A stretch of DNA of 64,000 bases from Pachysolen tannophilus NRRL Y-2460 (taxonomy: Eukaryota). The position numbers and the translations under genes are program-made. The notes below the pieces were generated by a model. The model was not told the origin of the DNA, searched no databases, and saw only the letters and a list, made by a program, of their open reading frames with translations. Where the stretch lies: contig KV454011.1 in assembly GCA_001661245.1 (NCBI GenBank), positions 1,776,041 through 1,840,040 of the forward strand, given 5' to 3'. This document shows positions 11,224 through 61,215 of this stretch, one piece after another. Positions within the stretch are counted from its first letter, which is position 1. Each line of letters opens with the position of its first letter.

Positions 11224-12990
11224 ATGGTGTTTGATCTGAGATCTGCTAGACAGAATGGGCATGGGAATGGGAATAGGTATAATCCGGGAAACGATTATGA
11301 GATAGATGATTATGGTCTTGATAGTGATGACTCGATAGAGGTTGGTAGAAGTAGGCCACAATTTGAAGAGAGAAGTTTTTTCAAGATGGATGATATTTTT
11401 GCAAAAGATAAAGAAAATTATTTAAATAGAGATTTGGATATTACAGATAAATTACGTTCAAATACTCACAAGATTGTTGAAGAATTACCCTCATCTGTGG
11501 CTTCAAAGTATGGTGAGATTTTAACTTCATTGACTGATCAAATCATAAGAGAGTATAAAGATTTGAAAAAAAAATATAAACTTTTACAGAGACAAGTGTC
11601 TAATAACGCGGCAGCAGCAACGGCGGCTAATAATAATCACAACAATGCTATGACCAATGGTAATGGTAAAGTTGATGATTTAATAATTGCAAAATTGCAA
11701 GAAAAATTGAAAAAATATAGAAATGAGTCGATGGATTTGGAGAAAAAAGTATCACTTAAGGATAAAGAAATTGCTCTATTGAAATCAAAACTACAGAAAC
11801 AAGAGAAACAAGAGAAACAAGAGATGCAAGAAAAGCAAGAGAAACCGCTGGTGTTGCTGGAGCCTCAGGAACAACCATTATCGGCTAACAAACTGTTGAT
11901 TAACGAACCATTGGATAACGATTCAGATACAAATTATTCATTTTTAATTGATCAATTGAAATCAGAAATCTCCAATTTGAATCTTGCGAAAGAACTGGAA
12001 ATTAGAAAAAAAAATCAAAAAAGAGAATATGAAGAATTACAAAAACAATTTGAACATTTAAAAAATCAACAAAAACACGTTTCTTTAAAAGATTTGGATG
12101 ATTTTAAAAAAAATATAGATTCAAACTTGGACTTGAAAATTAATTTATTGGTTGAAGAGATTCAAAAATTGAATCAGCAAAAATTTGAATATCATGAACC
12201 TGAATCTAAACTTGAAAATGAAAATGAAAATGAAAATGAAAATAAGAATGAGAATGAAAATGACACTGCAAAAGAAAAAGAAAATGAAAATGAATATTCT
12301 TCAAGAATTGATGCAAAATTGGACAAGATTTCAAAAGCTTTATACCAATTGTCCCACATGAAAAACACAATTACAAATCAATCAGATTTACCATTGCGTG
12401 TACCATCGCATGTACATTCACATTCACACTCACACTCACAAAAACAATGCAAATTTTGTCATAATGAAAGTGATGATGAAAATCATGAAACACCTTGTTC
12501 GATGTCGGCCTCAGAACTTATTCTGCAACCTTTGAAGGAACCAGTTAATAAATCATTACCAATTCTCACATCACCACCATCTTCAAGCCATAATTCTCGC
12601 TACGATAAAAAAAGTTTCTTAAAATATCAAATTGAATATTTAACTAAAGAAGAATCTAAATTAGATACTCAATACAGAGAACTCGATAAAGAAGATAAAT
12701 ATTTCAAGAATAAATCCATAATGATGGATATAATGGAAAAAAGTTTTAAAATTAAAGAAGAATTGGCTAAGAAAAAACAAGAATTGAAACAACAAGAAAA
12801 ACAAGAAAAAGAACAAGAACAAAAACAAGCTAAAGAATTGAATGAAAATGATGATGGGAATTGTACAATTAATTTGGTAAAAGATCACAAGAGAAATTTT
12901 GGTATACCTTTAAAAGATATCACTAATAAATATGGAGGGTCATTCCAATTCAACCCTGATAATAAAGGAATTCATTTCGAACGTCATTAG
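11224..12990 (+). CDS. Coiled-coil protein of unknown function, possibly spindle-pole-body (Ppc89/Cep57-like)
   Basis: 588-aa ORF with long heptad stretches, an (EN)n repeat, and a His-rich HSHSHS-QKQCKFCH motif before a C-terminal helical segment. The family call is tentative. Confidence 0.7.
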   Translation: MVFDLRSARQNGHGNGNRYNPGNDYEIDDYGLDSDDSIEVGRSRPQFEERSFFKMDDIFAKDKENYLNRDLDITDKLRSNTHKIVEELPSSVASKYGEILTSLTDQIIREYKDLKKKYKLLQRQVSNNAAAATAANNNHNNAMTNGNGKVDDLIIAKLQEKLKKYRNESMDLEKKVSLKDKEIALLKSKLQKQEKQEKQEMQEKQEKPLVLLEPQEQPLSANKLLINEPLDNDSDTNYSFLIDQLKSEISNLNLAKELEIRKKNQKREYEELQKQFEHLKNQQKHVSLKDLDDFKKNIDSNLDLKINLLVEEIQKLNQQKFEYHEPESKLENENENENENKNENENDTAKEKENENEYSSRIDAKLDKISKALYQLSHMKNTITNQSDLPLRVPSHVHSHSHSHSQKQCKFCHNESDDENHETPCSMSASELILQPLKEPVNKSLPILTSPPSSSHNSRYDKKSFLKYQIEYLTKEESKLDTQYRELDKEDKYFKNKSIMMDIMEKSFKIKEELAKKKQELKQQEKQEKEQEQKQAKELNENDDGNCTINLVKDHKRNFGIPLKDITNKYGGSFQFNPDNKGIHFERH

Positions 12991-16449: not shown

Positions 16450-17094
16450 TTATTCGAGAATATCGGTCAATGCCGATATTCTTGACATTTTATCAACCAT
16501 TTCGTTATAACCAGCAAAGAGCAGTTTCTTTTTTTCTTCTATTATCTTATGTTGACATTTAAATTCTTCAATCTTTTCACTATTTCTTTGTTCTACAACA
16601 TAATGAAGGTTACTAATAATGTTTTGTATAGCATCTTGATAATCAGTTACTAATTTTAAACAATGCTTATTATAATTTATTTTATCTTGTAATAATTTCT
16701 TTAAATAAAAATTCTCTTTTCTTAAATTGAATAATTTCAATTCTTTACCAGTTAAATGAGTTTCTTTAATTGAATATGGGAAGATTTGTTCTAAAGAAAT
16801 CATTTCATTTGTATATTTTAATTTACTTAAAAGATAATCTTCTTCTTCTTCTTCATCATTATTACCAACATCATTAATATCTTTCACCTCATGTCCGCCA
16901 GCAGAACATGAATTTTTAATCTCAAGCTGAAGTTGTAAATACTCAGCTTCTTGTAATATCTTATTCTTTAATAATTTATTCTCATTGATCTTATCGTTCA
17001 ATTGATCTAGTAATTGAAATAAGCATGTATAATCTTCGGTCCTATACAAATACTTTAACTGCTGGTACGGATTATTGCTATTATCAGAAACCAT
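16450..17094 (-). CDS. Small coiled-coil protein, possibly Far3/Far7 (STRIPAK)-like
   Basis: 214-aa ATG ORF with N-terminal LFQLLDQLNDKINENK and C-terminal LRKENFYLKKLL..LVTDYQDAIQNII coiled coils. Family resemblance is weak. Confidence 0.6.
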   Translation of the reverse strand: MVSDNSNNPYQQLKYLYRTEDYTCLFQLLDQLNDKINENKLLKNKILQEAEYLQLQLEIKNSCSAGGHEVKDINDVGNNDEEEEEDYLLSKLKYTNEMISLEQIFPYSIKETHLTGKELKLFNLRKENFYLKKLLQDKINYNKHCLKLVTDYQDAIQNIISNLHYVVEQRNSEKIEEFKCQHKIIEEKKKLLFAGYNEMVDKMSRISALTDILE

Positions 17095-17436: not shown

Positions 17437-20187
17437 ATGGATGTGCTGACACAGCCTAATGTTAGCGCTGGTGGTGGTGTAGGCAGAAATGGGAGTGGAG
17501 GCCATAGAAATAAAAATCATAACCAGCAGTCAGCGGTGATGGTTGCAGGAGATTCTGTGAATTTACAGAGTTTACAAAGTTCACAAAGCTCACAAAGTTC
17601 AAAGAGTACTAATGCGAAACAGCAATCTACTTCATTGTCATTTAGTTATCTCATACCTTCACATCCGTTTATAGATACTTTGGCGCTTTTGGTTTTGTTT
17701 TCAATTTTACCAACTTCGATGGCGTGCTTTATATTTATACTTAATATTTCATCAGATTCTTCAGTGTTTTTGTTGGGTAAGTTTTTATCAGGGGTTTTCA
17801 AGAAGATTAACGGAGCTGGAGAGCATAATCACAATAGTAATGGAAATGGAAATGGAAATAGCGAACCATCATCTTCATCTTCATCATCACAAGGCGCTAA
17901 TTCTACTTCGTTTGCAACAACAAATAGAAGTAATGGTGGCTCTATTGGTCTTTTCAATAATTCTGCTCTTTTACATGAAATAGTACGACCTTTGTTATTA
18001 TCATTATCCATAGATGCGTTTGTTGTTTGTGTTTTATTGTTTTTTTCACCAGGATTATTGAAATTTAGTTATCATTTATCAAAACTGTTTATTGCTTCAA
18101 ATTTATCTAGTTATAGATCAAGTTCGAATTTAAATGCTTTTGCTTCATTTTTAAGTCTATTGGCTATTGGATATTTATTCAATATGACAATGAGTTATTT
18201 TGATATTTATTATTTCCCATTAAGTTCTTCATCGTTATCATTAATAACTGCTGGTAACACAAGTATTCAAAACCGCGGCGATAACAGTGATAACGCAAAA
18301 AATGTTTTATCTAATTTATCTTCATCATTATCATCCCCGTCTTTTATCACATCATCAGAATCAATTATTATGAGATATTTCTACAGACTTCATAAGACTT
18401 TTGTGTTTTTAATTTTAAATAATTCCAAAAATTATAAAAATTGGACTTTTCTATTTTATTTCATCCAACAAACAATATACCCAGTTTTATCAATTCATAC
18501 CATTATTTTAAATATTAAACCTTTTTTGAAAAAAAATTCAGGTTTTAGTTTATTTTTCACAAAATCTTTGGATCAATTTTCAAATATTACTTTTAATTAT
18601 AATTATGCTATAACAAATACAAATATAAAATCTAAAAGAGGAACTCTAAATTATGCAGAACAAGAAATTCCAACTGTTAAAGTTGATTATCAAATTTCAA
18701 AATCTTCTTGTCCATCAATAATTGAATACTTGAATAATTCAGAAAATGTCGATCAAAACAATAATGATAGATATGAAGCTCCAGCTTCTTTCCCGAGTGA
18801 TCAATTATCAAACATAAGAGATATTTCAACAGCATTTGCCGTTGTATCAGAGAATTTCATGAATTATTGTATTCAACCATTTTCTTCGTTATCATCTAAT
18901 TGTTCTACATTTTATCCTCTGCAACAACAATCGCAGTTGCCTTCTTCTCCATCATTAAGTCAATCAATTAAAAAATCAACACTTTCTTCATCAAACGCTA
19001 CTACAGCAACATCGACTACATCATCATCATTATTATCAACAACAACAACAATAAACTCAACAAATAATAAAGGGAACGAAAACGTTAGATTCCATCAACC
19101 TTTATGGTCATTAATTGCTGCAGCAAAGACAATGTTTTCAAGACTTGATTTGTATTCAGGTGAAAGTGTTTGTCTTGACAGTAGTGATGGAGCCTTGGTT
19201 CATAATAAAAACGAATTCACCAGAAATTTAATAAATGATCCAGTTCAATGTTTTGTATTTTTAACTGGTGAAAATGATATTGGATTAGAATTATTTGGTG
19301 CCATAATTAATACCATCTTGATAAGAGTTAATGGGGTTGCTTGGTATCAAATAGTATCAGGAGTCGCCAATGATGTCGATTATGTATTTATTAGAGGATT
19401 AACTCCACTTTCTCAATACGATATTGAAGTTATTAATGTCAATAAACGTAACGAAAAAGAATTATTATGTCATTCAATTATTAGTACTACTTCAAATAAT
19501 TCAATGTTGATACATTCAAAAAAATCAACTCCTTTAGATACTTTACAACAAAGTCTAGCAACAACAAATAATAATCTTAATCGTGAAAAATTAAAATTGA
19601 AGAAACAAAAAAAGGATTATTCCAAAAAAATTCATTCTTACAAAAGTGAAATTGAAATATTGAAGAAAAAACTTTCAAATAATGATAAATCTGATGAAAG
19701 AAATTTTAGAAAAATATGTTTCTTACGTCAAACTTTAACTTCTTTGGAACAAGAATATTCAAAGATTAACGATGAAATATTGAATATTTATAATATTGAA
19801 AATGAATTACATGAGAAGTATCTTCAAGAAAAGAAAATATTCGATAAACAATTTAGAAAATTGACTAGTTTTGAAAATGATTATAATATGAAGAAAAATT
19901 TGAAATTAAACAAAATTTTAAGTTTACAAAATGATCTTAGTACTCTAAACCTGAAAAATGAAAAGTTGATCAAGAAGAAATTGAAAATTGTGGAAGAATT
20001 GGACCTGTTACAAGAATATATTAATAATTTGAAAATTGAAGATGTGGAATTCAGATTATCTAAAAGAAAAGATAGAGAATCAAATAGACTGAAAAGTTTA
20101 AACAAGTTTGGTTTGGAAATCTCAAAATTGGAAAAAGAAAACGAAGGACTAAAAGCCAAGAATATAAGACTACGGAACCAATTATGA
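17437..20187 (+). CDS. Membrane protein with FN3-like and coiled-coil regions (Nnf2/AcrB-like)
   Basis: N-terminal TM helices, HQPLWSLIAAAKTMF, IRVNG..IRGLTPLSQYDIEV and a long C-terminal coiled coil. Confidence 0.75.
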   Translation: MDVLTQPNVSAGGGVGRNGSGGHRNKNHNQQSAVMVAGDSVNLQSLQSSQSSQSSKSTNAKQQSTSLSFSYLIPSHPFIDTLALLVLFSILPTSMACFIFILNISSDSSVFLLGKFLSGVFKKINGAGEHNHNSNGNGNGNSEPSSSSSSSQGANSTSFATTNRSNGGSIGLFNNSALLHEIVRPLLLSLSIDAFVVCVLLFFSPGLLKFSYHLSKLFIASNLSSYRSSSNLNAFASFLSLLAIGYLFNMTMSYFDIYYFPLSSSSLSLITAGNTSIQNRGDNSDNAKNVLSNLSSSLSSPSFITSSESIIMRYFYRLHKTFVFLILNNSKNYKNWTFLFYFIQQTIYPVLSIHTIILNIKPFLKKNSGFSLFFTKSLDQFSNITFNYNYAITNTNIKSKRGTLNYAEQEIPTVKVDYQISKSSCPSIIEYLNNSENVDQNNNDRYEAPASFPSDQLSNIRDISTAFAVVSENFMNYCIQPFSSLSSNCSTFYPLQQQSQLPSSPSLSQSIKKSTLSSSNATTATSTTSSSLLSTTTTINSTNNKGNENVRFHQPLWSLIAAAKTMFSRLDLYSGESVCLDSSDGALVHNKNEFTRNLINDPVQCFVFLTGENDIGLELFGAIINTILIRVNGVAWYQIVSGVANDVDYVFIRGLTPLSQYDIEVINVNKRNEKELLCHSIISTTSNNSMLIHSKKSTPLDTLQQSLATTNNNLNREKLKLKKQKKDYSKKIHSYKSEIEILKKKLSNNDKSDERNFRKICFLRQTLTSLEQEYSKINDEILNIYNIENELHEKYLQEKKIFDKQFRKLTSFENDYNMKKNLKLNKILSLQNDLSTLNLKNEKLIKKKLKIVEELDLLQEYINNLKIEDVEFRLSKRKDRESNRLKSLNKFGLEISKLEKENEGLKAKNIRLRNQL

Positions 20188-20484: not shown

Positions 20485-21879
20485 ATGCAACCATTTAATA
20501 ATAATAGTAATAAACCAAAATTTCGAGTAGTTGATAGACCACTACCATTAAACCATATAACTAGTGCTAGCGATGAGCAAAACGATGTTCTCGAATCACC
20601 TAATCTTAATGACTCGTGGAAGATTAAAAATGACCGGCTTCTAAGATATAAGAAATTGAAAGAGTCTAGGGATAGGTTGATTGGTAGTAAAGACCATAAT
20701 GATAAAAAGCAGAACAATAGTATACTTGAACCAAAGTTGGATATTGAAAGACTACTACATAATAATAATAATAATGATAATAATAGTATTGATAAAGCAC
20801 ATATCAAAGAAATAGTACCCCATATACAAAATAATAATAGTCATTTGAACGCTGATAGAGGTGAGAAATTACAGTTATTGAAAACATTGATTAATGAGGC
20901 TAGGAGGAAAGTTGAATTGGAGCAGCTGAAATATGATGCTGAATTACAAAAATATTTAATTGAAGAAGATTATGAAAAGTTGCAACAAGATGAAGCTAAT
21001 AAAATTGGAAAAGGAATGGACATAAATTTTAAAATTCATGATAAAGATTTAGAAAAAAAAGATGAAGAATTGATAGTTGAGGAATCGTCTTCTCGTAGAA
21101 GCAATAGTAATAGAAATAGAAATAATAGGAATAGGAATGTTTTACAGCCATTAAAGACAATTTCATTATCACCACCATCTCCTTTACCACCATTGGCTCC
21201 TTTAGCTCCTCAGCCGAAACCTTCGTATGCTCAACATGGTGAATTACATCCATCTACGGAACCCGCAGTGAACAATAATTTTTTTTTGAGAAGACCATCT
21301 CAATCTCATTCCCCGAGAATTCCTTCAAAATTATCACAAACAGTAACCCCAGATGATCTAGAGACTCCTCCTCCTACTTTCCCTTCAAGTCAAGAAGAAT
21401 ATGATCAAGAAAATGGAAGAAAAAACAAGATTAAAGATGAAATAAAAGAAAATCTAGATGATAATATTTTCTTGGATACAGGAGAAAGAAAAAAGGAAAT
21501 AGATGATGTGATTGATGATTTCTTGGAGGTTATGGTTTCAAATGAATTTGAATCGGAAAAAAAGGAAAATGAAGTATCAATTGAAAAAGACAATTTAAAA
21601 TCAAATGTGCGAAGAAATCAATTGAGTAAAAAAGAAGAAGAAATTCAAAAAATGGAAAAGGATAACACATACGCTTATCATAATGATAACGAAGATGATG
21701 ATGACATTAACATTATATTTACATATATTTCAACAAAACTAGATGTTGTTCTGAACAAACTTACAGATCTTGAGCAAAAAAATTCCAAAACTTCACCTAA
21801 TGCTGATCATTATAAATGGACAATTGTAATTTTATTAATCGTTATATTTCTGATGTTCTCGTATATTGTCTCAGACTAA
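20485..21879 (+). CDS. Tail-anchored coiled-coil protein, unknown function
   Basis: 464-aa ORF with a coiled coil, a Pro-rich linker and a single C-terminal TM (WTIVILLIVIFLMFSYIV). Confidence 0.75.
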   Translation: MQPFNNNSNKPKFRVVDRPLPLNHITSASDEQNDVLESPNLNDSWKIKNDRLLRYKKLKESRDRLIGSKDHNDKKQNNSILEPKLDIERLLHNNNNNDNNSIDKAHIKEIVPHIQNNNSHLNADRGEKLQLLKTLINEARRKVELEQLKYDAELQKYLIEEDYEKLQQDEANKIGKGMDINFKIHDKDLEKKDEELIVEESSSRRSNSNRNRNNRNRNVLQPLKTISLSPPSPLPPLAPLAPQPKPSYAQHGELHPSTEPAVNNNFFLRRPSQSHSPRIPSKLSQTVTPDDLETPPPTFPSSQEEYDQENGRKNKIKDEIKENLDDNIFLDTGERKKEIDDVIDDFLEVMVSNEFESEKKENEVSIEKDNLKSNVRRNQLSKKEEEIQKMEKDNTYAYHNDNEDDDDINIIFTYISTKLDVVLNKLTDLEQKNSKTSPNADHYKWTIVILLIVIFLMFSYIVSD

Positions 21880-23972: not shown

Positions 23973-26900
23973 CTACCTTAAATAATATGGCAACCCATAA
24001 ACGATAGGAGCAGATCCATTCAAATATTTTAAATGACAAACATCCCTAGATGAAGAAACTGCTTGACATATGTTCTCGCTTTTCACATTATTTTCAAATA
24101 ATCCCCATTTCTCAAAAACTGATAAACTAAATTTATCAATGTCTTTATCCGTAACATCCCATAAATTCACCAACACCATAGGAGACCCACCGATAAGATA
24201 ATTAAAAACAGTACCATAAGGTTCTAGCATGCCATTATCCTTTAGCAAACCAGACGAACAACCCAATAATAAACTTGGTGGACAGTTTGATAATTCTTTT
24301 AATGACTTTGATCTGATGTACTGGTCTCCACTACCATGACCTAAATAAACAAACAAATCAGAATCTCGCAAGCCTTTTTGAAACTCTATCTCTTCCGGTC
24401 TTCTTCCTATAATGCCTTTCCAATTTACCAACGCGGCAAACTTAGATTTGAAATTTTGCTCTGTTCTTATTAAATCACCACTAGGATTCAAAATATAATA
24501 TCCATTAGTTTTTTCCAAGAGTAATTTCTTACTTGTATCACCTAGCAACTGTGACTCCAAATGATTCAATAGCATTTGCAAAGAAGGTGTTCTTGATATT
24601 GAGCAATCTCTCAATGATGGTAATGACTCCCATGGGAATTGTTGGCAACTTTTCGATACAACTAAGACTGTGTGTGTGAAACTGTCAAAGTTATCAAAGA
24701 AATTATCAGTATGATAATTATCTAGTAACTCTTCAATTTCAACGTACATTTGATCAATATCAATTTCGTCAAACGCATTTTCTTCTCCGTGAAACAACAA
24801 AATATCTAATACAAAGTATATCAAATCCTCTAGTAATTCAGTGCTAGACAAATTTGAAGGATGTCCCAAGCTTGCAAATAACTCCAAGACTTTATCATCC
24901 ACTTCAACGATATTGGAAGTCTTATTTCTTAGTCTCAGCTTCTTTCTAGAAGGCAAGTATCTATTCAATATATTAGTAAATTTGTCTTTAAACTCCCCCA
25001 TTAGGGTCCTATTAACTCTTTTTTGATTAAATATTCCTTTAAACCCACCTAACCAACAATATTCTGCGTCGGACATTAACTTTCCTAACTTTGAATCCAA
25101 TTCTTTTCTCTCGTTCCACCATGTTTCTTTGTCAGCACTGGTAACAATAGTAGAAGTTCTATCAATCTTTGTTGTGGCGTCACTGTCGTTTATAATGATC
25201 TTCAATTCTTTCAATGCATCATCAAATGTAAATGATTTTTCGCAGAGATCTCTTGCTGAGTGTCTATTTAGTGGAAGTCTGATTATAAATGGAGTTGTTG
25301 AATTTCTCTCCAATCTTGTTAGCAATAAATCGCCGTTATAAGGGCAAACATCAATTGTTATAACTAACCAATTCAGCGGAAGATATGATCGTATTTTTTT
25401 GAAAAAAGAAGTAGAGTTTTCAGCAGCCAGTATACTATTCTGTTTTTGTATATTATCATCTGGAAGCAACTTCTTTGAGTCTTCAGTTAGATCAACTAAT
25501 TTTTTCTGAAACATAAATGGTAAAAATCGTGGAACTTCATCTTTGAAGTATATATCCTGTAACAAATCAACTCTTATTTGTGAGGTAGATATTGCTGACA
25601 AAGTTGACAACGAAGCCATTAATGTTTTGTTTAAGTCATACAATTCGTAAATTTTAAAACATTGCAAAGCTTTTTCAAACGAGTTAACAACCAAGTCTCT
25701 TGATTGGGTCAAATTTTTCAATGCCTTCTTAACGTTGATATTATTTGAATATACAGCTGTTAGTCTTTTTGATACTTCAGGGGAATGAATCAGATTATCA
25801 ATCAACTGCATCATAGTTGACGGTAACAATATCGCGGAGTCATCTAAGCCAGATAATACAGGGTCAGTCGATAATGACTTCTTGGCAATAGCCAAATTTT
25901 TCTTAGAACCAATTACATTGTTTATCAACAAATCATATTGAAAGTGAAGTTTATGATCACTATTCGTGAGCTTCGCATTAAGTATCCTTCCAGTATCATC
26001 GCTCATATTCAACTTCAATAATTTTCTATGCTCAATTTGTAATTTCATTCTTGCAAATAACTGCAATTCGTCACTATGCATATTCCATATCGAAGAAACT
26101 GAATCATTTAACGAAAAAGTTTTGATATCCCGTGAGTTAACATCATTTTTGTAATTATAGGATTTAAATAGCTTTTCGAACAAAGTATCAACCATATCAT
26201 AATATATCTTTTCGTTCTTGTCATCCTCTATAGTTTGCATATAAAAAGCATGAGATGCCGTTCCTTTCAACTCTAAATATTTATCAGAGAAAATTAATTC
26301 GTTGTAGATTTCATCTCCTTTTACCATTAGTTGATTCGCCTTTAGTTTTTCACCACAAAGCAAGTAGAACTCAGCCGTAAAATAATAGACGTCACACTGA
26401 ACTAAAGGTATTCTATCGTTAAATTCCATGAATTTCGCAAGTTCCTCCAAATAGTATACGGCTTCTTTGGTCAAACCGCAATGAACCATAACTTCGACAA
26501 TGCATTTGTAGAAACTAATCGTCATGTGAGTTAGTTCCCATTTTATATTATTATATTGTACAATGTCAATATTAGTAACTCCTGTCATAAATTTTTTCAA
26601 AATCGATTGCGATATTCTGATAGCTCTTTTAACATTTAGTATCGATTCTGAAAAATTGTTTAATTCAAAATTCAAAAGACCAGATAAATAGGAGAATTTG
26701 GAAAATACTGTTAGTATTTTAATTACCTTAAATTTAGTTAGTTCACTCGTTAATTTGAAATCTTCAGATATCTGCAATGCTCTTAGGATTGTGGAATATT
26801 TTTCTCTAGCATTTGATAAGTTACCAATTAATAGACAATATTCAAATTGTAATAGTTTCCATTTAATAGTTTCAAAAATTGCTGATTTATGATCTTTCAA

Positions 26901-29600
26901 TATCGAGCCTATTGAGGTTAGTTCATTTGATAAGCGTTTAGAAAATTTTATGAAACTGAATGATTCGCAAAGTTTAAATTCCAAAAATAACGATTGCTCA
27001 TGGTTTATAAGTAAAGTCCTGGACTGCTTGTAGGTTTTCACTATGAATATCAAATATGAATTTAACTTCTGATACTGTAAGTAGCTTATCAAATATTGTA
27101 AAAATTCAAATTCAAATTCAATGAGTCTTTCGTTATTACTTATTGTTGAAGTTGGTTTTTTATTCAACCATTTAACAAAAAGTTCCAAACAACTCATAAG
27201 GATAGCTTGATTAAACTTTCTATTAATGGAATACTGTAAATAATTATAACAAACAATCAACTCTTTGCAATAATAAATACAACTGTCCACCGGAAATTTT
27301 TTCTCTTGGAACTCTTCATAATTGATATGAATAAATGATTCAAGCCCGGAAATATTATAATAACTTATCAAACAATATTGATATAGGCCTCTATCTATTA
27401 CTGTTTGCTTCAATTGTTCCATCAAACTATTAACTAGCGATGTCTTCTCTTCTGCAGAATATATTGAAAGCGCCTTAAAAATATTTGTGACAATAAATGC
27501 TTTTAAAAATTCATCTTCTTCGAACATGCTCAAATCAATTTTCTTTGATAACACCACTGATTTTATTAAAAGCTTAATGGTGACTGATAAATCTTTATTG
27601 AATCTGTTTTGTAATGTGAAAAAACCGTCACTTTTATTAATCTCAGGGTTACTTAAGTTCATGTAACATTTAAAAACTTTGGAAAGAAATAACATAGATT
27701 CAGAATAATTTCGATTTTCAATTAACAAGTTTGTAATTCTATCTATCTTAGTTTGGAAAAATTCAAAATTTTTCATTTTATTTTCAATTTTGTCATTAAT
27801 CACAATGCAGTATTCATAATTGATAGAGTTCATCCAATGATTCAATGATTCCCTAAAATTTTTTGTTAATAATTTACCTCCTGAATTAAATAATAGGTTT
27901 GAAAGGTTTCGTATTTTATTAAACTGCAAGTATTGTTGAGGACGGCTTTCCGATTTGAATATTTGGAACAATAAATCCAATGAAGAGTCTATTAATTTAA
28001 AATCTTGTACTGGATCCATTGCTTTGATTAGAAGAACAATGGAATCAAATAACAGAAAATGATTTTTGGATAAAAGGACTTCTGATTGTTTGGTTACCTT
28101 GACAAAATATTCTAATATCGAAGTTATCAAAGCCTTTGAATCCTGTAATTCATTATTTATCATTAATTCTATGATACTTGAGAGTTTCCTTAAAAAAAAA
28201 TCTTCATTCCAATATGATAATAAGTCCTCTGTTGGTTCATTTAAAATATGAATAATTTTATCACAAATAAAAGAGTCGTCCTTTACCGATATATCATCCA
28301 TCAACAAAATAATATCATCATCAAAATCATTATTATTATTTTGATTAGAATTCTGATTTATCAACCCACTATCTTTAATAATTAGGTTCCAATCTAATTT
28401 ATCTGTATCAAAGTCCGACTGATATTTTAATTTTATTCTTAAATATCTTTCTATCAATTTTAAGCAATAATTATCACCAGTGTGAATTAATAAATGTTTC
28501 TTTCCATTTATCAACTCATACACAAATGCAGAAGTATATTGATAAACCATTTTATCATCTTTGGTAATCATTATATTTAAATTATAATATAATTCGCGTA
28601 GTATTGAGTTATTCTTATCATGCTGTTGCTTTTGAAAATCTTGTTCAGATTGAAACTCGATAGCTTTTGACAAAAACGCCAATTTTAAAACTGTTTGAGT
28701 GTTCACTGAAAACGAATAAAGTATTTTGGATAAAGTAACCATTTTATTTAACTTTTGAGAATCTGTTAAATGAGAAAACCAACTAGAAAAATTGGAACTA
28801 GCTTTAACTGAGAATAAAATATCCTGGGAAGAAACAAATTTTTGTTGCTGTTTAGCATTTGTTTGTTGCAATGATTGATTTTCATGATTGTATAAAGCTT
28901 GAAGTAAAAGTATATGATTCGAAGTAATTATATTGCAGCACTCCTGAGGTAGATAAGGATTATAAGTTAAACCAGTCAACATTTCTTTAATCCCAGGGGT
29001 TATGTTCTCAGTGCTATACTTTTCAATTGTTTGAAAATGATCATCAAATTTAAAAGACACCAACTTTTTCAAGATTCGATATACATTCAGTATTTCATTT
29101 ATGCAAAGTTCATATTTTGATAAATCCATTAATTGAATAATGAAAGTTTGAGTTTTTTTACAAAAATTCAAAAAATGATCATCTATCAGATCAATATTAT
29201 TAGAAATAGTGTTGAAATTCAAATCAAACAATACTTTTAATGCAGTAACTGCTAATGATATTAAAGTATCCAATTTTTTCTTTTCATTTTCATCATTCTT
29301 CAAATTTTCGAGGTATGTTTGAATAAACCGAATCGAATACTCTATAACTTTAATACATTGATCTCGTATCACTTCCTCTTTAATGTTATCATTTATAATC
29401 TGATTATTATTTAACTCTCTTTGTTGTAAAACTTTTCTCTTGTTAATGAAAGTACGCCTTGTTGAATGACCATTTTTAACTGAAAAGGAGGACACAGAAC
29501 CGATCTGCGATAATGATGTCAAATAACTCTTAAAAAGCCTCTTCAGCTGTGGAATATTTATAACTAAATCATCATCTTCATCACTATATGATATTGGCAT
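23973..29600 (-). CDS. ESP1: Separase (peptidase C50)
   Basis: 1875 aa; WWNERKELDSKL, FPWESLP, YILNPSGDL, catalytic YLGHGSG and LLGCSS, NLWDVTDKDID, YLNGSAPIVYGLP. Confidence 0.97.
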   Translation of the reverse strand: MPISYSDEDDDLVINIPQLKRLFKSYLTSLSQIGSVSSFSVKNGHSTRRTFINKRKVLQQRELNNNQIINDNIKEEVIRDQCIKVIEYSIRFIQTYLENLKNDENEKKKLDTLISLAVTALKVLFDLNFNTISNNIDLIDDHFLNFCKKTQTFIIQLMDLSKYELCINEILNVYRILKKLVSFKFDDHFQTIEKYSTENITPGIKEMLTGLTYNPYLPQECCNIITSNHILLLQALYNHENQSLQQTNAKQQQKFVSSQDILFSVKASSNFSSWFSHLTDSQKLNKMVTLSKILYSFSVNTQTVLKLAFLSKAIEFQSEQDFQKQQHDKNNSILRELYYNLNIMITKDDKMVYQYTSAFVYELINGKKHLLIHTGDNYCLKLIERYLRIKLKYQSDFDTDKLDWNLIIKDSGLINQNSNQNNNNDFDDDIILLMDDISVKDDSFICDKIIHILNEPTEDLLSYWNEDFFLRKLSSIIELMINNELQDSKALITSILEYFVKVTKQSEVLLSKNHFLLFDSIVLLIKAMDPVQDFKLIDSSLDLLFQIFKSESRPQQYLQFNKIRNLSNLLFNSGGKLLTKNFRESLNHWMNSINYEYCIVINDKIENKMKNFEFFQTKIDRITNLLIENRNYSESMLFLSKVFKCYMNLSNPEINKSDGFFTLQNRFNKDLSVTIKLLIKSVVLSKKIDLSMFEEDEFLKAFIVTNIFKALSIYSAEEKTSLVNSLMEQLKQTVIDRGLYQYCLISYYNISGLESFIHINYEEFQEKKFPVDSCIYYCKELIVCYNYLQYSINRKFNQAILMSCLELFVKWLNKKPTSTISNNERLIEFEFEFLQYLISYLQYQKLNSYLIFIVKTYKQSRTLLINHEQSLFLEFKLCESFSFIKFSKRLSNELTSIGSILKDHKSAIFETIKWKLLQFEYCLLIGNLSNAREKYSTILRALQISEDFKLTSELTKFKVIKILTVFSKFSYLSGLLNFELNNFSESILNVKRAIRISQSILKKFMTGVTNIDIVQYNNIKWELTHMTISFYKCIVEVMVHCGLTKEAVYYLEELAKFMEFNDRIPLVQCDVYYFTAEFYLLCGEKLKANQLMVKGDEIYNELIFSDKYLELKGTASHAFYMQTIEDDKNEKIYYDMVDTLFEKLFKSYNYKNDVNSRDIKTFSLNDSVSSIWNMHSDELQLFARMKLQIEHRKLLKLNMSDDTGRILNAKLTNSDHKLHFQYDLLINNVIGSKKNLAIAKKSLSTDPVLSGLDDSAILLPSTMMQLIDNLIHSPEVSKRLTAVYSNNINVKKALKNLTQSRDLVVNSFEKALQCFKIYELYDLNKTLMASLSTLSAISTSQIRVDLLQDIYFKDEVPRFLPFMFQKKLVDLTEDSKKLLPDDNIQKQNSILAAENSTSFFKKIRSYLPLNWLVITIDVCPYNGDLLLTRLERNSTTPFIIRLPLNRHSARDLCEKSFTFDDALKELKIIINDSDATTKIDRTSTIVTSADKETWWNERKELDSKLGKLMSDAEYCWLGGFKGIFNQKRVNRTLMGEFKDKFTNILNRYLPSRKKLRLRNKTSNIVEVDDKVLELFASLGHPSNLSSTELLEDLIYFVLDILLFHGEENAFDEIDIDQMYVEIEELLDNYHTDNFFDNFDSFTHTVLVVSKSCQQFPWESLPSLRDCSISRTPSLQMLLNHLESQLLGDTSKKLLLEKTNGYYILNPSGDLIRTEQNFKSKFAALVNWKGIIGRRPEEIEFQKGLRDSDLFVYLGHGSGDQYIRSKSLKELSNCPPSLLLGCSSGLLKDNGMLEPYGTVFNYLIGGSPMVLVNLWDVTDKDIDKFSLSVFEKWGLFENNVKSENICQAVSSSRDVCHLKYLNGSAPIVYGLPYYLR

Positions 29601-30343: not shown

Positions 30344-30997
30344 ATGTCATCAAGTGAAATTGAAGAGGTTAAAACTCCAAAGGCATTTCCATTACCAAGT
30401 CCATTTTGGAATGTATCATCGGGGCCAAATAAGGCATACCAGCCAGTTGATCCATTTTCCAATGCTTCCAAGCTTTTTATTGGAACAGGTGTTTTCGTTG
30501 TTGGTATGCATTTTAGAAGACTTTTACAACGTAAAAAGGGATCTGCTAGACCTGGTTTAGCGAGATATTTAGAAATGTTTGAAATGACAAAACTGCACCT
30601 TATTGGTATTCCTCTTGGTGTCTCCAGTTATTCTTTTTTACATGATTGTTTACAGAATGTTTATGAAAAGGAAACAGCTTTTAATGAATTTTTGTCTTCA
30701 GGGATTGCTTCGTTTATTGGTGTTTCTATTATTAAAAATAATAGAAAAATTGGTACTAATGTGGGTACTGCACTTGGTATTGGGCTCATGTTTGCTACTA
30801 TGAGATGGGCAGGTGGGTTTGCTGGTCTTGATAAAAACTCGCATCGTCAAGTGGATAGCGCAGGACTTTTACTTAAACAAGAAGATTCTAGAGATATCAA
30901 GACAGAGAGACAAGGTTTTTGGGATTTAACGTATAGAAGACCATTGTCTCAAACTATTGAAGATTTAGGTGAAGGCCGTGGTATTTTAAGGCCATAA
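30344..30997 (+). CDS. Complex I accessory subunit NDUFA11/21.3-kDa (Tim17-like fold)
   Basis: AYQPVDPF, several TM helices, C-terminal RRPLSQTIEDLGEGRGI. Confidence 0.75.
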   Translation: MSSSEIEEVKTPKAFPLPSPFWNVSSGPNKAYQPVDPFSNASKLFIGTGVFVVGMHFRRLLQRKKGSARPGLARYLEMFEMTKLHLIGIPLGVSSYSFLHDCLQNVYEKETAFNEFLSSGIASFIGVSIIKNNRKIGTNVGTALGIGLMFATMRWAGGFAGLDKNSHRQVDSAGLLLKQEDSRDIKTERQGFWDLTYRRPLSQTIEDLGEGRGILRP

Positions 30998-31059
30998 GTA
31001 ATCTTACTAGTTCCAGTAATTTATTTATTTATTTATTTTATCTATCTATTTATTTATTT

Positions 31060-31090
<31 letters not shown>

Positions 31091-31217
31091 TTAATTCATA
31101 TTTATTAAAAGTTTTTACATGTAGTCAGTAATTTCTATTACTAACGTAGTACTCGTTTTTTTGATATTTTCACATAGTTTGACTTTTAAAAAGAATTCAG
31201 TTAAATCTCAATATAAA

Positions 31218-31250
<33 letters not shown>

Positions 31251-31335
31251 TAATCAAATCAAAAATTCAATAGAAAATTCTATTTCATATATAGATGTTT
31301 AAAAAAAAAGTATATATTCTATTATTCAATGGAAC

Positions 31336-33507
31336 TTACAAAACTTTTCCAACTGTGCTTCCCATAGAATGATGTTTCTCAGTATCAGAAACTTTCTTTA
31401 AGCTCCTACCACCTTGAATTTCTCCTAAAAGTGCAGAAATTGGTAAGCCAGCAGAAGGAGATGGTGCCGATGGTGCAGCTTCCGATCCGTTGCCATTAGA
31501 CATTGAAAAGGATGGCAGAGGAGGTGCTGGAGGGGCTGGTGGTGCTGCTGGTGCTGCTGGTGCCGACATTGATGGCAACGCCGGTGCTGGAGGTGCGACA
31601 GGAGGTAACGGTGGCAGTGGTGGTGCCGGTGGTGCAGCATTTGTTGGTAGTGGTGGTGCCAACGGTGGCGCCTGTGGTGGCGGAGGTGCTGAGTCACTTG
31701 GTAGAGGAGGAGCAGGAGGAGCGGGAGGAGCAGAATTAGTAGGTAATGGCGGCAGAGGTGGTACCACATTTGACGGAATTGGAACCTCAGCCGGTACCGA
31801 TTCGTTTGGAGTCGGAACGGAATTCAAGGTTGTGGTAGCACTAGTTTCTGAAGTAGGCAATTCTGGAACTGGTGGTACCACTGGTTCTTGTAATTCGGGA
31901 GCGTCTGGCGTCGAAAGTGATTCATTCACCAAAGGAGAGTTAGCATCTTGAACAGAAACGTACGAACTTGTTGTTGCTGTTGAATCATTATCCGAACCTT
32001 CTTTTTGTGGTTGTTGTGGTACTTGAGGCAGCTGTTGTGGTGGATTGACCGCTTGGTCTTTAGCTAGAGAATTTCCAGAATCAGTTCTGCTAACAGTAGG
32101 TACCGATGCAGAACTACCACCAAAAAGTAAGCTTGCCAAATGTGCAGGACCTCTTAAAGGAATAGCATCATCTTCATCCTCATCAGAAGTCGGTTCATCA
32201 CCCCAGTCATCATCATCATTGCCTGCTCCTCCTCGTTGTGCTTTTCTTTGAGCTTCAATAGCCTTTTTATCGAATACTTGTTGAGGTTGCTTCTGAGAAG
32301 CTGAATCAGTTGCAGGTGCCTGTGGTTTGAAAAATGGATTGTTGGCAGAAGGCAGCGCAGGAGCAGGAGTGATAGCTGCAGAAGGTGATTCCAGTTTCTG
32401 CAGTTGTTGAAAACCAGTGAAAGGATTATGAGAATGTGGTTGATATTCTGAAGAAGAGACCGACGACAGACCATTTACCGTTGCTGGCAGGGATTTTTCA
32501 GTCTCCACCTGCTTATTTGTGGAGAGCTCCGCATTCTGCTCTTTGCCTTCATTTTCAGTTGCATTTTCTCTTTCTTCCTTTTCTTTCAAAGCTTTCATTT
32601 CGGCTTTTAGTCTCTCAATTTCGGCTTTCCGTTCAGCCCTCTTCTTTTTCTTTTCTTCCTCTTCTTTCTCTAATCTGGCTTTTTCCCTTAACAATTCCGC
32701 AAGTTCTTCTGCTTCATCATCTGAATCATCTTTCTGTTCGCTTAAAGGTGCAGCAGATGGGGCAGGTTTAGGGATTTCCGAAATGGCAGGTGAAGATGTG
32801 GGTCTATTATTGTCCTCAATCTTTGACGAACTCTCGCTTACATTTTCTTTCCTTTGCAAAGTTTCAACTGGCGTTCTTAAATTATTATTGGAAACAGCTG
32901 CTTGTGAGTTGGTATCAGTCTTAGCAGGAACGGCAGATAGCTCTGGAGATTTACTCTCGACCGGTGGAGAATTAACACTACTTGCAGAAGTAGTGCCACG
33001 TCTGGAGATACCAAGCTTAGCGAGCCTAGCATTCATTCTTTCTTGTGCTTGTCTCTTGATATAAGCAGCTCTGTCCTCGGGTGATTGGTAACTAGAATAA
33101 GTTGACCCACCAGTTGACTGAGGAGAAGCAAAAGATGAACGGTCCAGTGATGAATTGAAATTATTAGTAGCAACATTTGCAGTTGATGAATTCAGTGCTG
33201 ACAATGTTTTGGGTTTCAAACTATTTAACAAATCAATAAAATTCTTAACTTCATAAGTGGAAATTCCTTCTCCCTTTTCAAATTTATTGTAATCAACTTG
33301 TTCTGTATTCGAAGTTTCTAAATGTGATCTGACGTTTGACGCTAATTCATTAACTGAAGTTTCAATATCTTTAATGATGGCCTTCTCAGACATAATCTTC
33401 TTATCGATATTCTCAATTTCAAACAGTAACTTAGACTCACCGTCTTCAAACTCATCCATTGAGGGAGCCTGCTGTCCAGTCAATGCTGCCATTTTCTGTC
33501 TTAGTAA
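31336..33507 (-). CDS. PAN1: PAN1 3' segment (coiled coil, acidic, Pro-rich, WH2)
   Basis: LRQKMAALTG, EDRAAYIKRQAQERMNARLAKLGI, NPF motifs, poly-Pro, ALLGEIQGGRSLKKV. Confidence 0.9.
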   Translation of the reverse strand, partial: LLRQKMAALTGQQAPSMDEFEDGESKLLFEIENIDKKIMSEKAIIKDIETSVNELASNVRSHLETSNTEQVDYNKFEKGEGISTYEVKNFIDLLNSLKPKTLSALNSSTANVATNNFNSSLDRSSFASPQSTGGSTYSSYQSPEDRAAYIKRQAQERMNARLAKLGISRRGTTSASSVNSPPVESKSPELSAVPAKTDTNSQAAVSNNNLRTPVETLQRKENVSESSSKIEDNNRPTSSPAISEIPKPAPSAAPLSEQKDDSDDEAEELAELLREKARLEKEEEEKKKKRAERKAEIERLKAEMKALKEKEERENATENEGKEQNAELSTNKQVETEKSLPATVNGLSSVSSSEYQPHSHNPFTGFQQLQKLESPSAAITPAPALPSANNPFFKPQAPATDSASQKQPQQVFDKKAIEAQRKAQRGGAGNDDDDWGDEPTSDEDEDDAIPLRGPAHLASLLFGGSSASVPTVSRTDSGNSLAKDQAVNPPQQLPQVPQQPQKEGSDNDSTATTSSYVSVQDANSPLVNESLSTPDAPELQEPVVPPVPELPTSETSATTTLNSVPTPNESVPAEVPIPSNVVPPLPPLPTNSAPPAPPAPPLPSDSAPPPPQAPPLAPPLPTNAAPPAPPLPPLPPVAPPAPALPSMSAPAAPAAPPAPPAPPLPSFSMSNGNGSEAAPSAPSPSAGLPISALLGEIQGGRSLKKVSDTEKHHSMGSTVGKVL

Positions 33508-34606
33508 CCAACAAACTGGCTTCACATCCGTTTTAACCAATCAAACTGGTATTCAACCTCAAGCAACAGGATTCAATCCAATTTTAGCGCAAGCCACCGG
33601 TTTGGGACAGCCGACAGCATTACCTCCTATGCCAACAGGAGGTTTGGTTCCACAGAAAACTGGAGGGTTGACAAACTTTTACAATAATTTTGTACCAAAT
33701 AATTCAGCAAACACTGTTACTTGGGCCATCACTAGAGAGGAAAAAGCAATTTTTGATGGTATTTACAATAATTGGGACAAGGATCACAAAGGCTATGTTG
33801 ATGGTAAAACAGCAGTCCAAATTTTCAGTCAATCAGGTCTAGCAAGACCAGATTTAGAGAAAATCTGGACTTTAAGTGACATAAACAATAGAGGAAAATT
33901 AAATAAAGATGAATTCGCAGTTGCCATGCATTTGGTCTATAGAAGATTGAATGGTTTGGATATTCCAAACTACTTACCCCAGGAGTTAATCCCTCCATCT
34001 ACTAAGGTATTGGACGATGTGAAATCTTCATTGAAAACTTCCACTTATGCTAAGAAACCCACCAAGTTACCAGCATCTATATCTTCAAATTTCAAAAACG
34101 ATGATAATGATGGATCTTTTTACGTTAGCAGAAACAGAAGAAAGAATACTCCTGAGAGAAAAGATGGACCACCAAGCTCAGACTCACAATCTAGTGATAA
34201 TCTGAATATGTCAATAGAAGACTTGAAGAAATCAATTCGTGAAAAACAAATTTTGTTGGATGCTATTGATGCTAAGGATGAAGATCAAGCTGTTAACAAC
34301 AATTATTTACTGCAGAAAAATTTGAATGAGATTGAAACCTTAAAAGTGAAGATTAGAGAGGCTCAAGATAAATTAATTTCATCTCTGACATCTTATTCAA
34401 TGGATAATCAGGAAAAAAATCAATTATTATCAAGGTTAAACTCTTTAACTGACAAACTTCCAAGGCTTTTATCTGAAGTAACGGCTGTGGATGAACAAAT
34501 CAGAAATTTAAAGATTGAAAAATTCAAGAAGCAGTTACAAAAAGAATCACCACATATCAAGTTTTTCGGATCAGAAGAAGAAAAACGTAAGGCAAAATCA
34601 AAATTA
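33508..34606 (+). CDS. PAN1: PAN1 middle segment (QxTG repeats, second EH domain, coiled coil) in inverted orientation
   Basis: The + strand encodes QQTG/QATG repeats and WAITREEKAIFD..QSGLARPDLEKIWTLSDINNRGKLNKDEFAVAMHLV, then SIEDLKKSIREKQILLDAID, ending at KRKAKSKL. Confidence 0.9.
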
Positions 34607-36006
34607 GGCTGTAAACCACCTGTTCTTTGTGGTTGTAAGTTTGGATTGTATCCTGTAGCTTGTGGAACCAACAGATTCTGACCACCAAAAGAGGTAGGTT
34701 GAGGAATCAAACTTGGATTATAACCTGTTCGCTGAGGGACTAATCCACCTGTCCTTTGAGGTTGCAATGAAGAGGTATTATAACCTGTTTGCTGAGGAAT
34801 TATCTGCTGCTGCTGCTGCTGCTGTTGTTGTTGTTGTTGTTGTTGTTGCTGAGGTACACTTCCAGTATTAAAAGATGTGGCTTGTGGTAAAATTCCAGTC
34901 TGTTGTGGAACCAATGCGCCCGTTGTTTGTGGTTGTAATCCCTGGTTGAACCCCGTTTGCTGGTGTGTCATTGCCCCAAATGAAGTAGTTGGAGGCAGTG
35001 GTATTAAATTTGCATTGAATCCTGTTTGTTGTGGAATTAAACCACCTGTTCTTTGAGATTGTAAGCCTGTTGCAAAACCAGTTTGTTGTGGTTGAATATT
35101 GAAACCTGTTTGCTGAGGTTGTTGAAATCCTGTTTGCTGAGATTGCATAACACCACCTGTTCTTTGCTGTCTAATATCATTACTGAAAGGAGTATTATTA
35201 GGAGGAGGATTACTCTCAGATCCTTCTCCAACACCAAAACTAATAAGATCAACAAAACTGCTGATTTCATTTTTCATCTTTGTTGGTAACTCGAACGGAA
35301 GTTTTTCACCTTTCAAGACAACATTACATAAATGTAACGCCAAAGCAAATTCAGGAAATAACAAATGACCCGATCTCGTTGTATCTGATAAAGCCCATAT
35401 TTCAGCCAATTGGGTCAGAGGTAAATTTGATCTCATCAAGATATCTCTTGCAGTGTTACCATCTATTGAATTTTCTCCCTTTGGTACAGATATCCTAAAT
35501 AAGTGTTCAAATTTTTGTTGGTCCTCAGGCGTAATGAACGAAATACGAATAGCTGGAATTTTCAACTCCGTATTTTCAACCTCTTGATATTGCTGTTGAT
35601 TTTGTTGTTGATTACCAAAAGTAGGTACTTGAGTTTGATATGACGCAACAGTATAGCCAGTAGGTTGGAACCCCAATAATTGATTCTGTTGTTGGGGCTG
35701 CTGCTGCTGCTGCGGCTGCTGTTGAGCATAACCAGTTGCCTGGCCACTCAATTGATTAAAATTATTGAATCCGCCGCCAATATTATTATTAACAGGATAT
35801 CCAGTAGGCTGAGAATTTAACGGTTGAAAATTATTATAACCCGTTCGCTGAGCTGTAATAAATCCAGTTTGTTGAGCATTCAATCCTCCAAAATTTTGCT
35901 GTACGGGCGCGCTTTGAAAATTAGTAAAGCCAGTTGGCTGTGATTGTAAAGGCGGTTGTTGCTGCTGATTATTGTTATTGAAACCTTGTTGTTGATAAGG
36001 AAACAT
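34607..36006 (-). CDS. PAN1: PAN1 5' segment (QxTG repeats, first EH domain)
   Basis: MFPYQQQ start, many QPTG/QRTG/QQTG repeats, IPAIRISFITPEDQQKFEHLF..LAEIWALSDTTRSGHLLFPEFALALHL. Confidence 0.92.
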
Positions 36007-36514
36007 ATTCAATTGCTAATTTTTTTTTAATGAAAACAAAAATAAATAAAAAACAAAAAAAAAAACAAAAAAAAAGAAGAAAAAAAAAAAGAAGAAGAAA
36101 TTAGAGAAACAGGTGAAAAAAAGATGCTGAATGAGCTTCGAAGTTGATAGAAAATAGTTTTAATTATATTATAAAATATATTAATCAATTCAATAGAATT
36201 GATCAACCTACATGATCAAAAATGAAATTCAAAAATAGCCAAGAGTCGTTAAGATACATGGGAGCTTTTTTGATTTATCGTACACGTCCACGGTTGTTAG
36301 CACCATTTTAGAAGAGAAAGATGGAAATAATCAAGAATGTTAACCGGTAAGAGGTTAGTTGACTGATGCCAGAAAATGTTAGATAAGGCTGAAGAGTTCA
36401 AGACAATGTGAGATCTTTAAGTTGAATCAATTGAGCTTATGGGTATTAATTGAAGCTTAAAAACTTGTTATTAAAACATATATATATAGCCGAAAGAAAA
36501 AAAAATAATGTAAT

Positions 36515-39222: not shown

Positions 39223-39909
39223 TTACATTAATAACATCACACCGACTGCAATGGCTGAACCCAAAGTCAATCCGACGGTGCCTTCATGTAAACCAGCAGC
39301 TCCTGCGGAAGAAGAAGCAGAAGCAGAAGCAGAACTGGAAGAATTGCTACTTACAGAAGCAGCATAAACTTGCTTAAAGACAACTTCATCTGCTTCAACT
39401 TGTGGAGTGACTTGAACATAAACTGTTGAAGTTGAAGGATTCTTTGTATGGTTGAATTTACCATATTTATGAGTACCTGTAGAACTTGAAGTTGAAGACA
39501 GCTTTGTATGGTTAAATTTACCATATCTATGAGTTCCAGTTGAACTTGAAGTTGAAGACAGCTTTGTATGATTAAATTTACCATACTTGTGAGTACCTGT
39601 AGAACTTGAAGTTGATGAAGCCTTTGTATGATTAAATTTACCATACCTGTGTGTTCCAGTTGAACTTGAAGTTGAAGACAGCTTTGTATGGTTGAATTTA
39701 CCATACTTGTGAGTACCTGTCGAACTTGAAGTTGGAGCAGCTTTTGTATGATTGAATCTACCATATTTATGGGTATAAGAAGCAGCAGTTCCAGTTTTAG
39801 TAACTGTAACTACTATCTGACCATCTCCCGCTGGTGCTGGGGCAGCTAAAGAATTAGCAGCATTAAGTGCAATTACACCACCAACAATAGCAACTGAAGA
39901 AACTTTCAT
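39223..39909 (-). CDS. GPI-anchored cell-wall hydrophilin (YNL190W/Pga14 family)
   Basis: Signal peptide, six THKYGKFNHTK-type repeats, and a C-terminal GPI signal (AGAAG..TLGSAIAVGVMLLM). Confidence 0.88.
   Translation of the reverse strand: MKVSSVAIVGGVIALNAANSLAAPAPAGDGQIVVTVTKTGTAASYTHKYGRFNHTKAAPTSSSTGTHKYGKFNHTKLSSTSSSTGTHRYGKFNHTKASSTSSSTGTHKYGKFNHTKLSSTSSSTGTHRYGKFNHTKLSSTSSSTGTHKYGKFNHTKNPSTSTVYVQVTPQVEADEVVFKQVYAASVSSNSSSSASASASSSAGAAGLHEGTVGLTLGSAIAVGVMLLM
39440..39775 (-). repeat. 60-bp coding tandem repeat, about 5.5 copies
   Basis: Sequence lines 39481-39780 align with period 60 (gaacttgaagttga..ctttgtatg..aatttaccata). Confidence 0.95.
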
Positions 39910-43922: not shown

Positions 43923-44729
43923 ATGTTTTCTAAAAGTGTATGGCTTGAACTGAGATTAGGGTCAGGGTTATTTCCATCAACTTTACAAACTAGGGTTTTT
44001 CCACCAAAAATTGGAATTTTAAAATCATGGTTTCATTCAAGTTTTATAATTAATAAATCTGTATCGGCGTCTAAGGATATAGAATTAGATTCTGATGATT
44101 TAAAATATGAAATTTCTCAAAAAAAGGAAATTGTAGCTTATAAAACAGCAGGTTTAAATATTTTCAATACTAAAAAATTACCTCTGAATTTAAGGAAATC
44201 ATTTGAACCAATTTATATTGGACCATTAAGTAATTTTATTGCAACTTCTAAAAGAGTTTCAATTGTATTTGGTATAGTTGGATTATATTTATCTAAATTG
44301 ATGTTAGATATTGGTATTTTCAATGAAACTTTAATTTACCTGATGGCAGGATTTAGTTCTTTACCTTACCCTTTGGTCCAATATTTAACATCATCTTATG
44401 TATCAGCAATTTATAGAATTTATGATAAGACTAAACCACAAACTTTAGAAAATTTAATAACTAATGAAATGCTTATATTTGAAAAAATAAATTGGTCAGG
44501 AAGAAAATCTTTTAATAATTTAGTTAAAGTTGATGATAGAAATTTTAAATTATTAGAAAAGGAGAATACAAAATTTGGTTGGTGTAATTGGCAATCAACA
44601 GACCCAGATAATGGTATATTAAGAAAATATTACATTACAGATGATGTTGGAGGAATTAAAATGGATAGAATATGGGGCATTGTTGAAAGAAATAGTGGAG
44701 TGGATAACGGAAGAACTTTTGAAAAATAA
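43923..44729 (+). CDS. Probable mitochondrial inner-membrane protein, possibly TMEM70-like
   Basis: Presequence-like N-terminus, PIYIGPLS..KRVSIVFG, two TM helices, YVSAIYRIY, GGIKMDRIWGIVE. Confidence 0.7.
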   Translation: MFSKSVWLELRLGSGLFPSTLQTRVFPPKIGILKSWFHSSFIINKSVSASKDIELDSDDLKYEISQKKEIVAYKTAGLNIFNTKKLPLNLRKSFEPIYIGPLSNFIATSKRVSIVFGIVGLYLSKLMLDIGIFNETLIYLMAGFSSLPYPLVQYLTSSYVSAIYRIYDKTKPQTLENLITNEMLIFEKINWSGRKSFNNLVKVDDRNFKLLEKENTKFGWCNWQSTDPDNGILRKYYITDDVGGIKMDRIWGIVERNSGVDNGRTFEK

Positions 44730-60928: not shown

Positions 60929-61215
60929 NNNNNNNNNNNNNNNNNNNNNNNNNNNNNNNNNNNNNNNNNNNNNNNNNNNNNNNNNNNNNNNNNNNNNNNN
61001 NNNNNNNNNNNNNNNNNNNNNNNNNNNNNNNNNNNNNNNNNNNNNNNNNNNNNNNNNNNNNNNNNNNNNNNNNNNNNNNNNNNNNNNNNNNNNNNNNNNN
61101 NNNNNNNNNNNNNNNNNNNNNNNNNNNNNNNNNNNNNNNNNNNNNNNNNNNNNNNNNNNNNNNNNNNNNNNNNNNNNNNNNNNNNNNNNNNNNNNNNNNN
61201 NNNNNNNNNNNNNNN
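60929..61215. other. Assembly gap (287 N)
   Basis: Run of N after a poly-A tract. A single N also occurs at 14308 in a poly-T tract. Confidence 0.99.

Follow-up and report, generated by a model that had tools for sequence, protein, structure and literature searches.

Conservative reversal of a block of DNA is the outcome of the site-specific inversion switches, among them Flp/FRT of the 2-micron plasmid, Cre/lox, the SCRaMbLE system of synthetic yeast with its loxPsym sites, and the Hin/Gin type of invertase. Micro-inversions made by replication template switching usually span tens to a few hundred bases, with microhomology or small losses at their ends. Inversions are also a class of misassembly in draft genomes, and those introduced by an assembler normally are bounded by inverted repeats or coincide with contig joins that are marked by Ns or overlaps.

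Here we describe a reverse-complemented block inside the PAN1 gene of a budding yeast, as written in a 64-kb stretch of DNA that was analysed as a whole and that we call the window. This block resembles the product of a site-specific switch in outcome only, being a conservative reverse complementation. It differs from such systems in that its ends bear neither recombination sites nor inverted repeats, the 64 kb contain no recombinase gene, and the contigs show no second orientation. With "inversion"-class misassemblies it shares a record orientation that is contradicted by read-derived contigs, as well as an origin in a draft that contains gaps (an N at 14308 and a stretch of 287 at 60929-61215), but its joints are seamless and in 4/4 runs the contigs pass through them along an unbranched path.

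The gene itself belongs with Pan1 of budding yeasts, an Eps15-related endocytic scaffold. Like these proteins, it encodes two EH domains within Q-rich DUF1720 repeats and a central ...MAALTGK... motif, and it differs from them in that its middle is flipped in the window; its C-terminus is proline-rich, with a hint of a WH2-like motif. In S. cerevisiae, amino acids 402-855 of Pan1, comprising EH2 and part of the central region, are reported to be necessary for growth and viability (PMC4454182), and the essential function of PAN1 in endocytosis is known for S. cerevisiae only (PMC4454182).

PAN1 Is Written in Three Pieces on Alternating Strands

A first-pass annotation, made from the letters of the window, had described PAN1 as cut into three pieces on the minus, plus and minus strands, and both the positions of the open reading frames (ORFs) and the Pfam matches agreed with this description. 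The features of the locus, with the coordinates of EH domains 1 and 2 computed from Pfam residue ranges, are:

34606..36006, minus strand: codons 1-467 of the PAN1 orthologue (from ORFs and Pfam, with the edge between 34605 and 34606 taken from the contig pieces)
35290..35535, minus strand: EH domain 1 (PF12763, E 2.1e-13; residues 158-239 of the N-terminal piece)
34605..34606, no strand: junction 1, very probably artefactual, exactly between codons 467 and 468; opposite-strand joint in 4/4 runs
33509..34605, plus strand: inverted block of 1097 nt, on the strand opposite to the remainder of PAN1 (contigs of 4/4 runs)
33731..34012, plus strand: EH domain 2 (PF12763, E 5.3e-19; residues 75-168 of the middle piece)
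33508..33509, no strand: junction 2, very probably artefactual, inside codon 833; opposite-strand joint in 4/4 runs
31336..33508, minus strand: PAN1 orthologue from the third base of codon 833 through its stop codon (from the ORF and single-HSP alignments reaching residue 1556)
31390..31437, minus strand: weak WH2-like motif (PF02205, E 0.0044, 17.1 bits; residues 691-706 of the C-terminal piece)

The N-terminal piece, which holds Q-rich long repeat 1, EH1 and the start of long repeat 2, lies in a minus-strand ORF at 34420-36015 (531 aa from stop to stop, 528 aa from the ATG at 36006), and DUF1720 (PF08226) matched three stretches of it at E 4.6e-20. Past codon 467, the frame as written continues for 61 nonsense codons before a stop is reached at 34420-34422. 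The annotation's reading of the written locus as an EH1 fragment of ~528 aa with a nonsense tail was thus accurate, the predicted product consisting of 467 Pan1 residues followed by 61 nonsense residues.

The inverted block carries codons 468-832 plus bases 1 and 2 of codon 833, and so contains the end of the Q-rich repeat, EH2 and the first part of the central region. It is held in a plus-strand ORF at 33293-34681, in which we found an EF-hand_1 match inside EH domain 2 and a DUF1720 (PF08226) match at E 1.1e-4. The C-terminal piece, in a minus-strand ORF at 31336-33540, comprises the remaining part of the central region, an acidic and K/E-rich stretch, the proline-rich C-terminus and the WH2-like motif. 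No Pfam family matched this piece at E<=0.001, and the WH2-like motif, whose 17.1 bits fall short of the curated cut-off (23.1), is a hint only; a proline-rich tail is visible in the translation. An exact look-up in a protein collection recovered none of the three ORFs in the form that they take in the window (528, 435 and 718 aa; 0/3), a result that is uninformative as to whether a public record carries the flip, since the neighbour-gene controls likewise gave 0/2.

PAN1 was the only broken gene that we saw in the 64-kb window, which has a GC content of 30%. At E<=1e-5, Pfam placed 17 of the 26 other ORFs of at least 150 aa in housekeeping families (proteasomal AAA ATPase, RabGAP, separase, AAR2, importin-alpha, D-Tyr-tRNA deacylase, MatE and PIR, among others), and these family-matched genes look intact. 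The remaining nine matched no family; eight of them lie at 7075-8346, 11224-12990, 16450-17094, 17437-20187, 20485-21879, 30344-30997, 39223-39909 and 43923-44729, and these eight include one of 916 aa and one of 588 aa. Near the stop-codon end of PAN1, two ORFs away with 30344-30997 between, is a separase (Esp1-like) gene at 23973-29600 on the minus strand, an intact ORF of 1875 aa with a C-terminal Peptidase_C50 domain (E 7.8e-143). The sole tRNA that ARAGORN detected in the 64 kb is a tRNA-Pro (anticodon TGG) at 189-261 on the minus strand.

Read-Derived Contigs Carry PAN1 in Collinear Order

Five public runs contain the stretch, four of them from one sample and study (P1) and one from a second study (P2). 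Four runs were placed on positions 31000-36500, namely X1, X3 and X4 (one sample, P1) and X5 (second sample, P2), the last of which bears a flag to the effect that it "may be" the source of this DNA. The evidence from these runs consists of Logan contigs, which show what is present and from which rare variants are dropped, so that a minority inverted form could escape them.

We found that in 4/4 runs a single contig of 3610 nt covered 31260-34793 with 0 mismatches and 0 gaps. It did so in three contiguous segments (contig positions 41-228, 229-1325 and 1326-3574), of which the middle one matched the strand opposite to both flanks. This middle segment corresponds to window positions 33509-34605, which is to say that the contig carries a collinear PAN1 in each of the four runs. 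The opposite-strand joints fell at 33508/34605 and 33509/34606 in 4/4 runs, with 0 letters common to both sides, and no contig of the four runs bridged either junction in the orientation of the window. The annotation had proposed that support for the collinear arrangement alone would mark the inversion as an artefact, and at the level of contigs this arrangement alone was seen, in 4/4 runs from two studies. The word depth of the 3610-nt contig (177, 60, 117 and 118 in the four runs) was close to that of a neighbouring contig (172, 62, 118 and 102), as expected of a locus in single copy. Of the sampled words, a share of 0.97 was found in 5/5 runs, a value that fits absent junction words and an uncovered 65-nt gap equally.

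Contig cover was lacking in some or all runs at 31000-31108, 31201-31259, 34794-34858 and 36028-36105, and X3 and X4 had none beyond 36027 either; these stretches were skipped as repeats or filtered and have no bearing on orientation. Two loose ends, at 35056 and 35925, were considered as further junctions and rejected, the contig of 11-12 kb that meets them sharing only 19 + 27 letters of Q-rich repeat with the locus. That contig comes from elsewhere in the genome, where it probably holds another Q-rich repeat gene, and it matches 35038-35056 and 35925-35951; the matches of 19 and 27 letters are due to chance or to a paralogous repeat.

The contigs also fix the limits of the flipped block, at exactly 33509-34605 (1097 nt), with no microhomology at the joints. 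The annotation had offered two nearly equivalent flips, and of these 33509-34605 is the one that fits the contigs, whereas 33508-34606 would put other bases at 33508 and 34606; the protein that results is identical for both. Its further solution, which made use of a TAA/TTA inverted microhomology, is contradicted by the contigs, which fit 33509-34605 with 0 other letters. Under that flip (33505-34606) the peptide would differ, with an N inserted after GGLQP and one L lost, and we rejected it on the same evidence.

Since the contigs carry the collinear order and match the window in all other respects, the flip very probably belongs to the record and not to the organism. A real chromosomal inversion fixed in the sequenced isolate or clone, arising from two breaks and end-joining with no loss of bases and disrupting PAN1, is nonetheless what the window sequence itself depicts. 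Clean two-break inversions are physically possible, and the flagged run only "may be" the source. Yet the window equals the contigs of two studies at every covered base of 31260-34793 except in orientation, which indicates that they come from the same strain, and the flagged run is itself collinear at a word depth of ~118x. The joints are without microhomology, indel or repeat. By homology, the locus as written would also lack, in cis, the region that is needed for viability in S. cerevisiae (PMC4454182), which speaks against such an inversion being fixed in a viable haploid. Taken with the orientation of the contigs, this makes a fixed inversion very unlikely. Given that Logan contigs drop rare variants, an inverted form might be present in the cells at low frequency or in a particular clone, or as one state of a process that is independent of repeats, and the assembler behind the record would then have taken it up; we regard this as extremely improbable.

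The Restored Gene Aligns with Pan1 Orthologues Across Both Junctions

When 33509-34605 was reverse-complemented by script, a single ORF of 4671 nt encoding 1556 aa was obtained, in which the junction peptides read ...GGLQP/QQTGF... and ...KAKSKL/LLRQKMAALTG.... The uninterrupted ORF and the junction peptides given in the annotation were thereby reproduced.

A search with the middle piece among longer proteins yielded 899 relatives at E<=0.001, of which the best 120 were listed; among these best 120 of 899, the proteins with a descriptive name went by Pan1 or by actin cytoskeleton-regulatory complex protein. Of the matches listed, the nearest was a Logan protein with 54% identity over the middle piece. 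From the 120, we compared 11 proteins (P0001 to P0004, P0006, P0007, P0009, P0016, P0027, P0043 and P0069), picked for the top of the list and for named yeasts. Seven of the 11 carry an organism name, and two of these, from Candida railenensis and Yarrowia lipolytica, are named Pan1/PAN1 by their source. The best-matching organism-named proteins among the 11 were those of Kuraishia capsulata (973 columns at 45% identity) and Komagataella kurtzmanii (1306 columns at 41%).

The alignment of the re-inverted ORF to Pan1 orthologues had been put forward in the annotation as a check, and in 11/11 cases a single HSP spanned both junctions. Each of these long HSPs crossed residues 467/468 and 833, with bit scores of 471-920; examples include residues 142-1556 of the restored ORF against P0001 and 34-1556 against P0016. 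Junction 2, in the restored gene, lies within a K.K..L.Q.MAALTGK motif that MAFFT alignment showed to be continuous in 11/11 orthologues. Junction 1 lies in repeats of the QQTGF type, where P0001 is likewise continuous: PQQTGFTSVLTNQTG (MAFFT).

The end-to-end alignment of the restored ORF with Pan1 orthologues places the observation of a PAN1 with a flipped middle far beyond chance. Because the alignments are continuous over both junctions, the collinear order is, judging from these comparisons, the ancestral and functional order of PAN1. Full-length collinear similarity of the script-flipped ORF in 11/11 comparisons joins it to Pan1 of budding yeasts, while it differs from the 11 orthologues in having just 35-46% identity over the long HSP, and from Pan1 relatives in its length of 1556 aa, somewhat longer than most (1255-1675 aa among the best 60 of 899). 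The gene is a new, though ordinary, Pan1 family member from a low-GC budding yeast.

No Repeat, Recombinase or Recombination Site Was Found to Account for an Inversion in the Cell

Within ±60 nt of the two junctions, the best inverted-repeat alignment between them scored 13, against 9.4 ± 1.7 in shuffled sequence, with 26/500 shuffles reaching 13; the alignment in question is a Q-repeat unit that lies off the break. The best direct repeat between the junctions (±60 nt) scored 7 against 8.7 ± 1.5, which is nothing beyond chance. None of the 25 longest inverted pairs in 33000-35100 joined one junction to the other, and these pairs turned out to be Q-repeat units that were inverted by the flip itself. 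The core motifs of loxP, loxPsym and FRT were absent from the window, and at E<=1e-5 none of the 26 other ORFs of at least 150 aa in the window matched a family of recombinases, integrases or transposases. The annotation's observation that there is no longer inverted repeat and no recombinase nearby was therefore borne out by both the shuffle test and the Pfam search. A second orientation of the block was not found in the contigs of 4/4 runs, from which a rare form could be dropped.

These results bear on a heterozygous or switchable arrangement, in which a recombinase would invert the block within the gene and both orientations would coexist in the culture. Apart from the fact that the orientation of the window differs from that of the contigs, nothing that we observed speaks for such an arrangement. 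A mix of the two forms at comparable frequency should break the contig at its branch points, but the contig was unbroken in 4/4 runs. The ends of the block bear no inverted repeats, no recombinase family occurs in the 26 ORFs, and no loxP, loxPsym or FRT site is present. Moreover, the flip ruins the reading frame and gives no alternative product. We therefore consider a heterozygous or switchable inversion highly improbable. The annotation had kept a real or switchable inversion as its alternative, and this found no support in the contigs, the repeats or the recombinase search.

A replication template switch, leaving a micro-inversion by a four-point switch as a structural allele, would be expected to leave another kind of trace. 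The block, which is 1097 bp long and shows neither microhomology nor loss of bases, is unlike what this process usually makes, and the contigs of 4/4 runs lack the inverted form; the odds of such an origin are very small. All three of these accounts (a fixed inversion, a switchable one and a template-switch allele) predict reads across the inverted junctions, and none was seen at the level of contigs.

The Flip Is Very Probably an Artefact of the Record

We conclude that the flip of 33509-34605 is, in all likelihood, an artefact of the sequence record and not a chromosomal inversion in the yeast. The organism would carry an intact, collinear PAN1 of 1556 codons, which encodes two EH domains in Q-rich repeats as well as a central region and a C-terminus rich in proline, and the reverse complementation of the 1097-bp block would be confined to this sequence record. 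It would have arisen after sequencing, through an error of assembly or finishing or through an in-silico rearrangement of the sequence. Mis-assembly or artificial rearrangement was the cause that the annotation had ranked first, and the collinear contigs of 4/4 runs support it.

Between these sources, we lean slightly towards a computational operation on the finished sequence over an assembler error associated with a repeat or gap, since the flip is seamless, has no repeat, N or microhomology at its ends, and lies inside one unbranched contig. There are no Ns near the PAN1 locus, the window's only ones being at 14308 and 60929-61215, and no repeat, gap or contig end that would explain an error at the breakpoints was found when Ns, junction alignments and contig joints were checked. 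As for the Ns themselves, the single one at 14308 sits inside a poly-T tract (T10 N T12) and probably reflects an ambiguity of homopolymer length in the draft. The run of 287 Ns at 60929-61215 follows directly on a poly-A tract, ~230 nt downstream of a gene for a PIR-repeat cell-wall mannoprotein (59712-60695), and represents an assembly gap or a withheld stretch.

By homology with S. cerevisiae (PMC4454182), the locus as written would probably be a null allele of an essential gene. A seamless flip that restores the reading frame can be quickly settled by placing public runs on its junctions, as was the case here. No new biology follows from the PAN1 flip, and its value lies in flagging an error of the record. 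As written, this record would lead annotators to a PAN1 pseudogene or to three fragments, though the read-derived gene is intact, and analyses of gene loss or synteny that use it would be wrong at the PAN1 locus.
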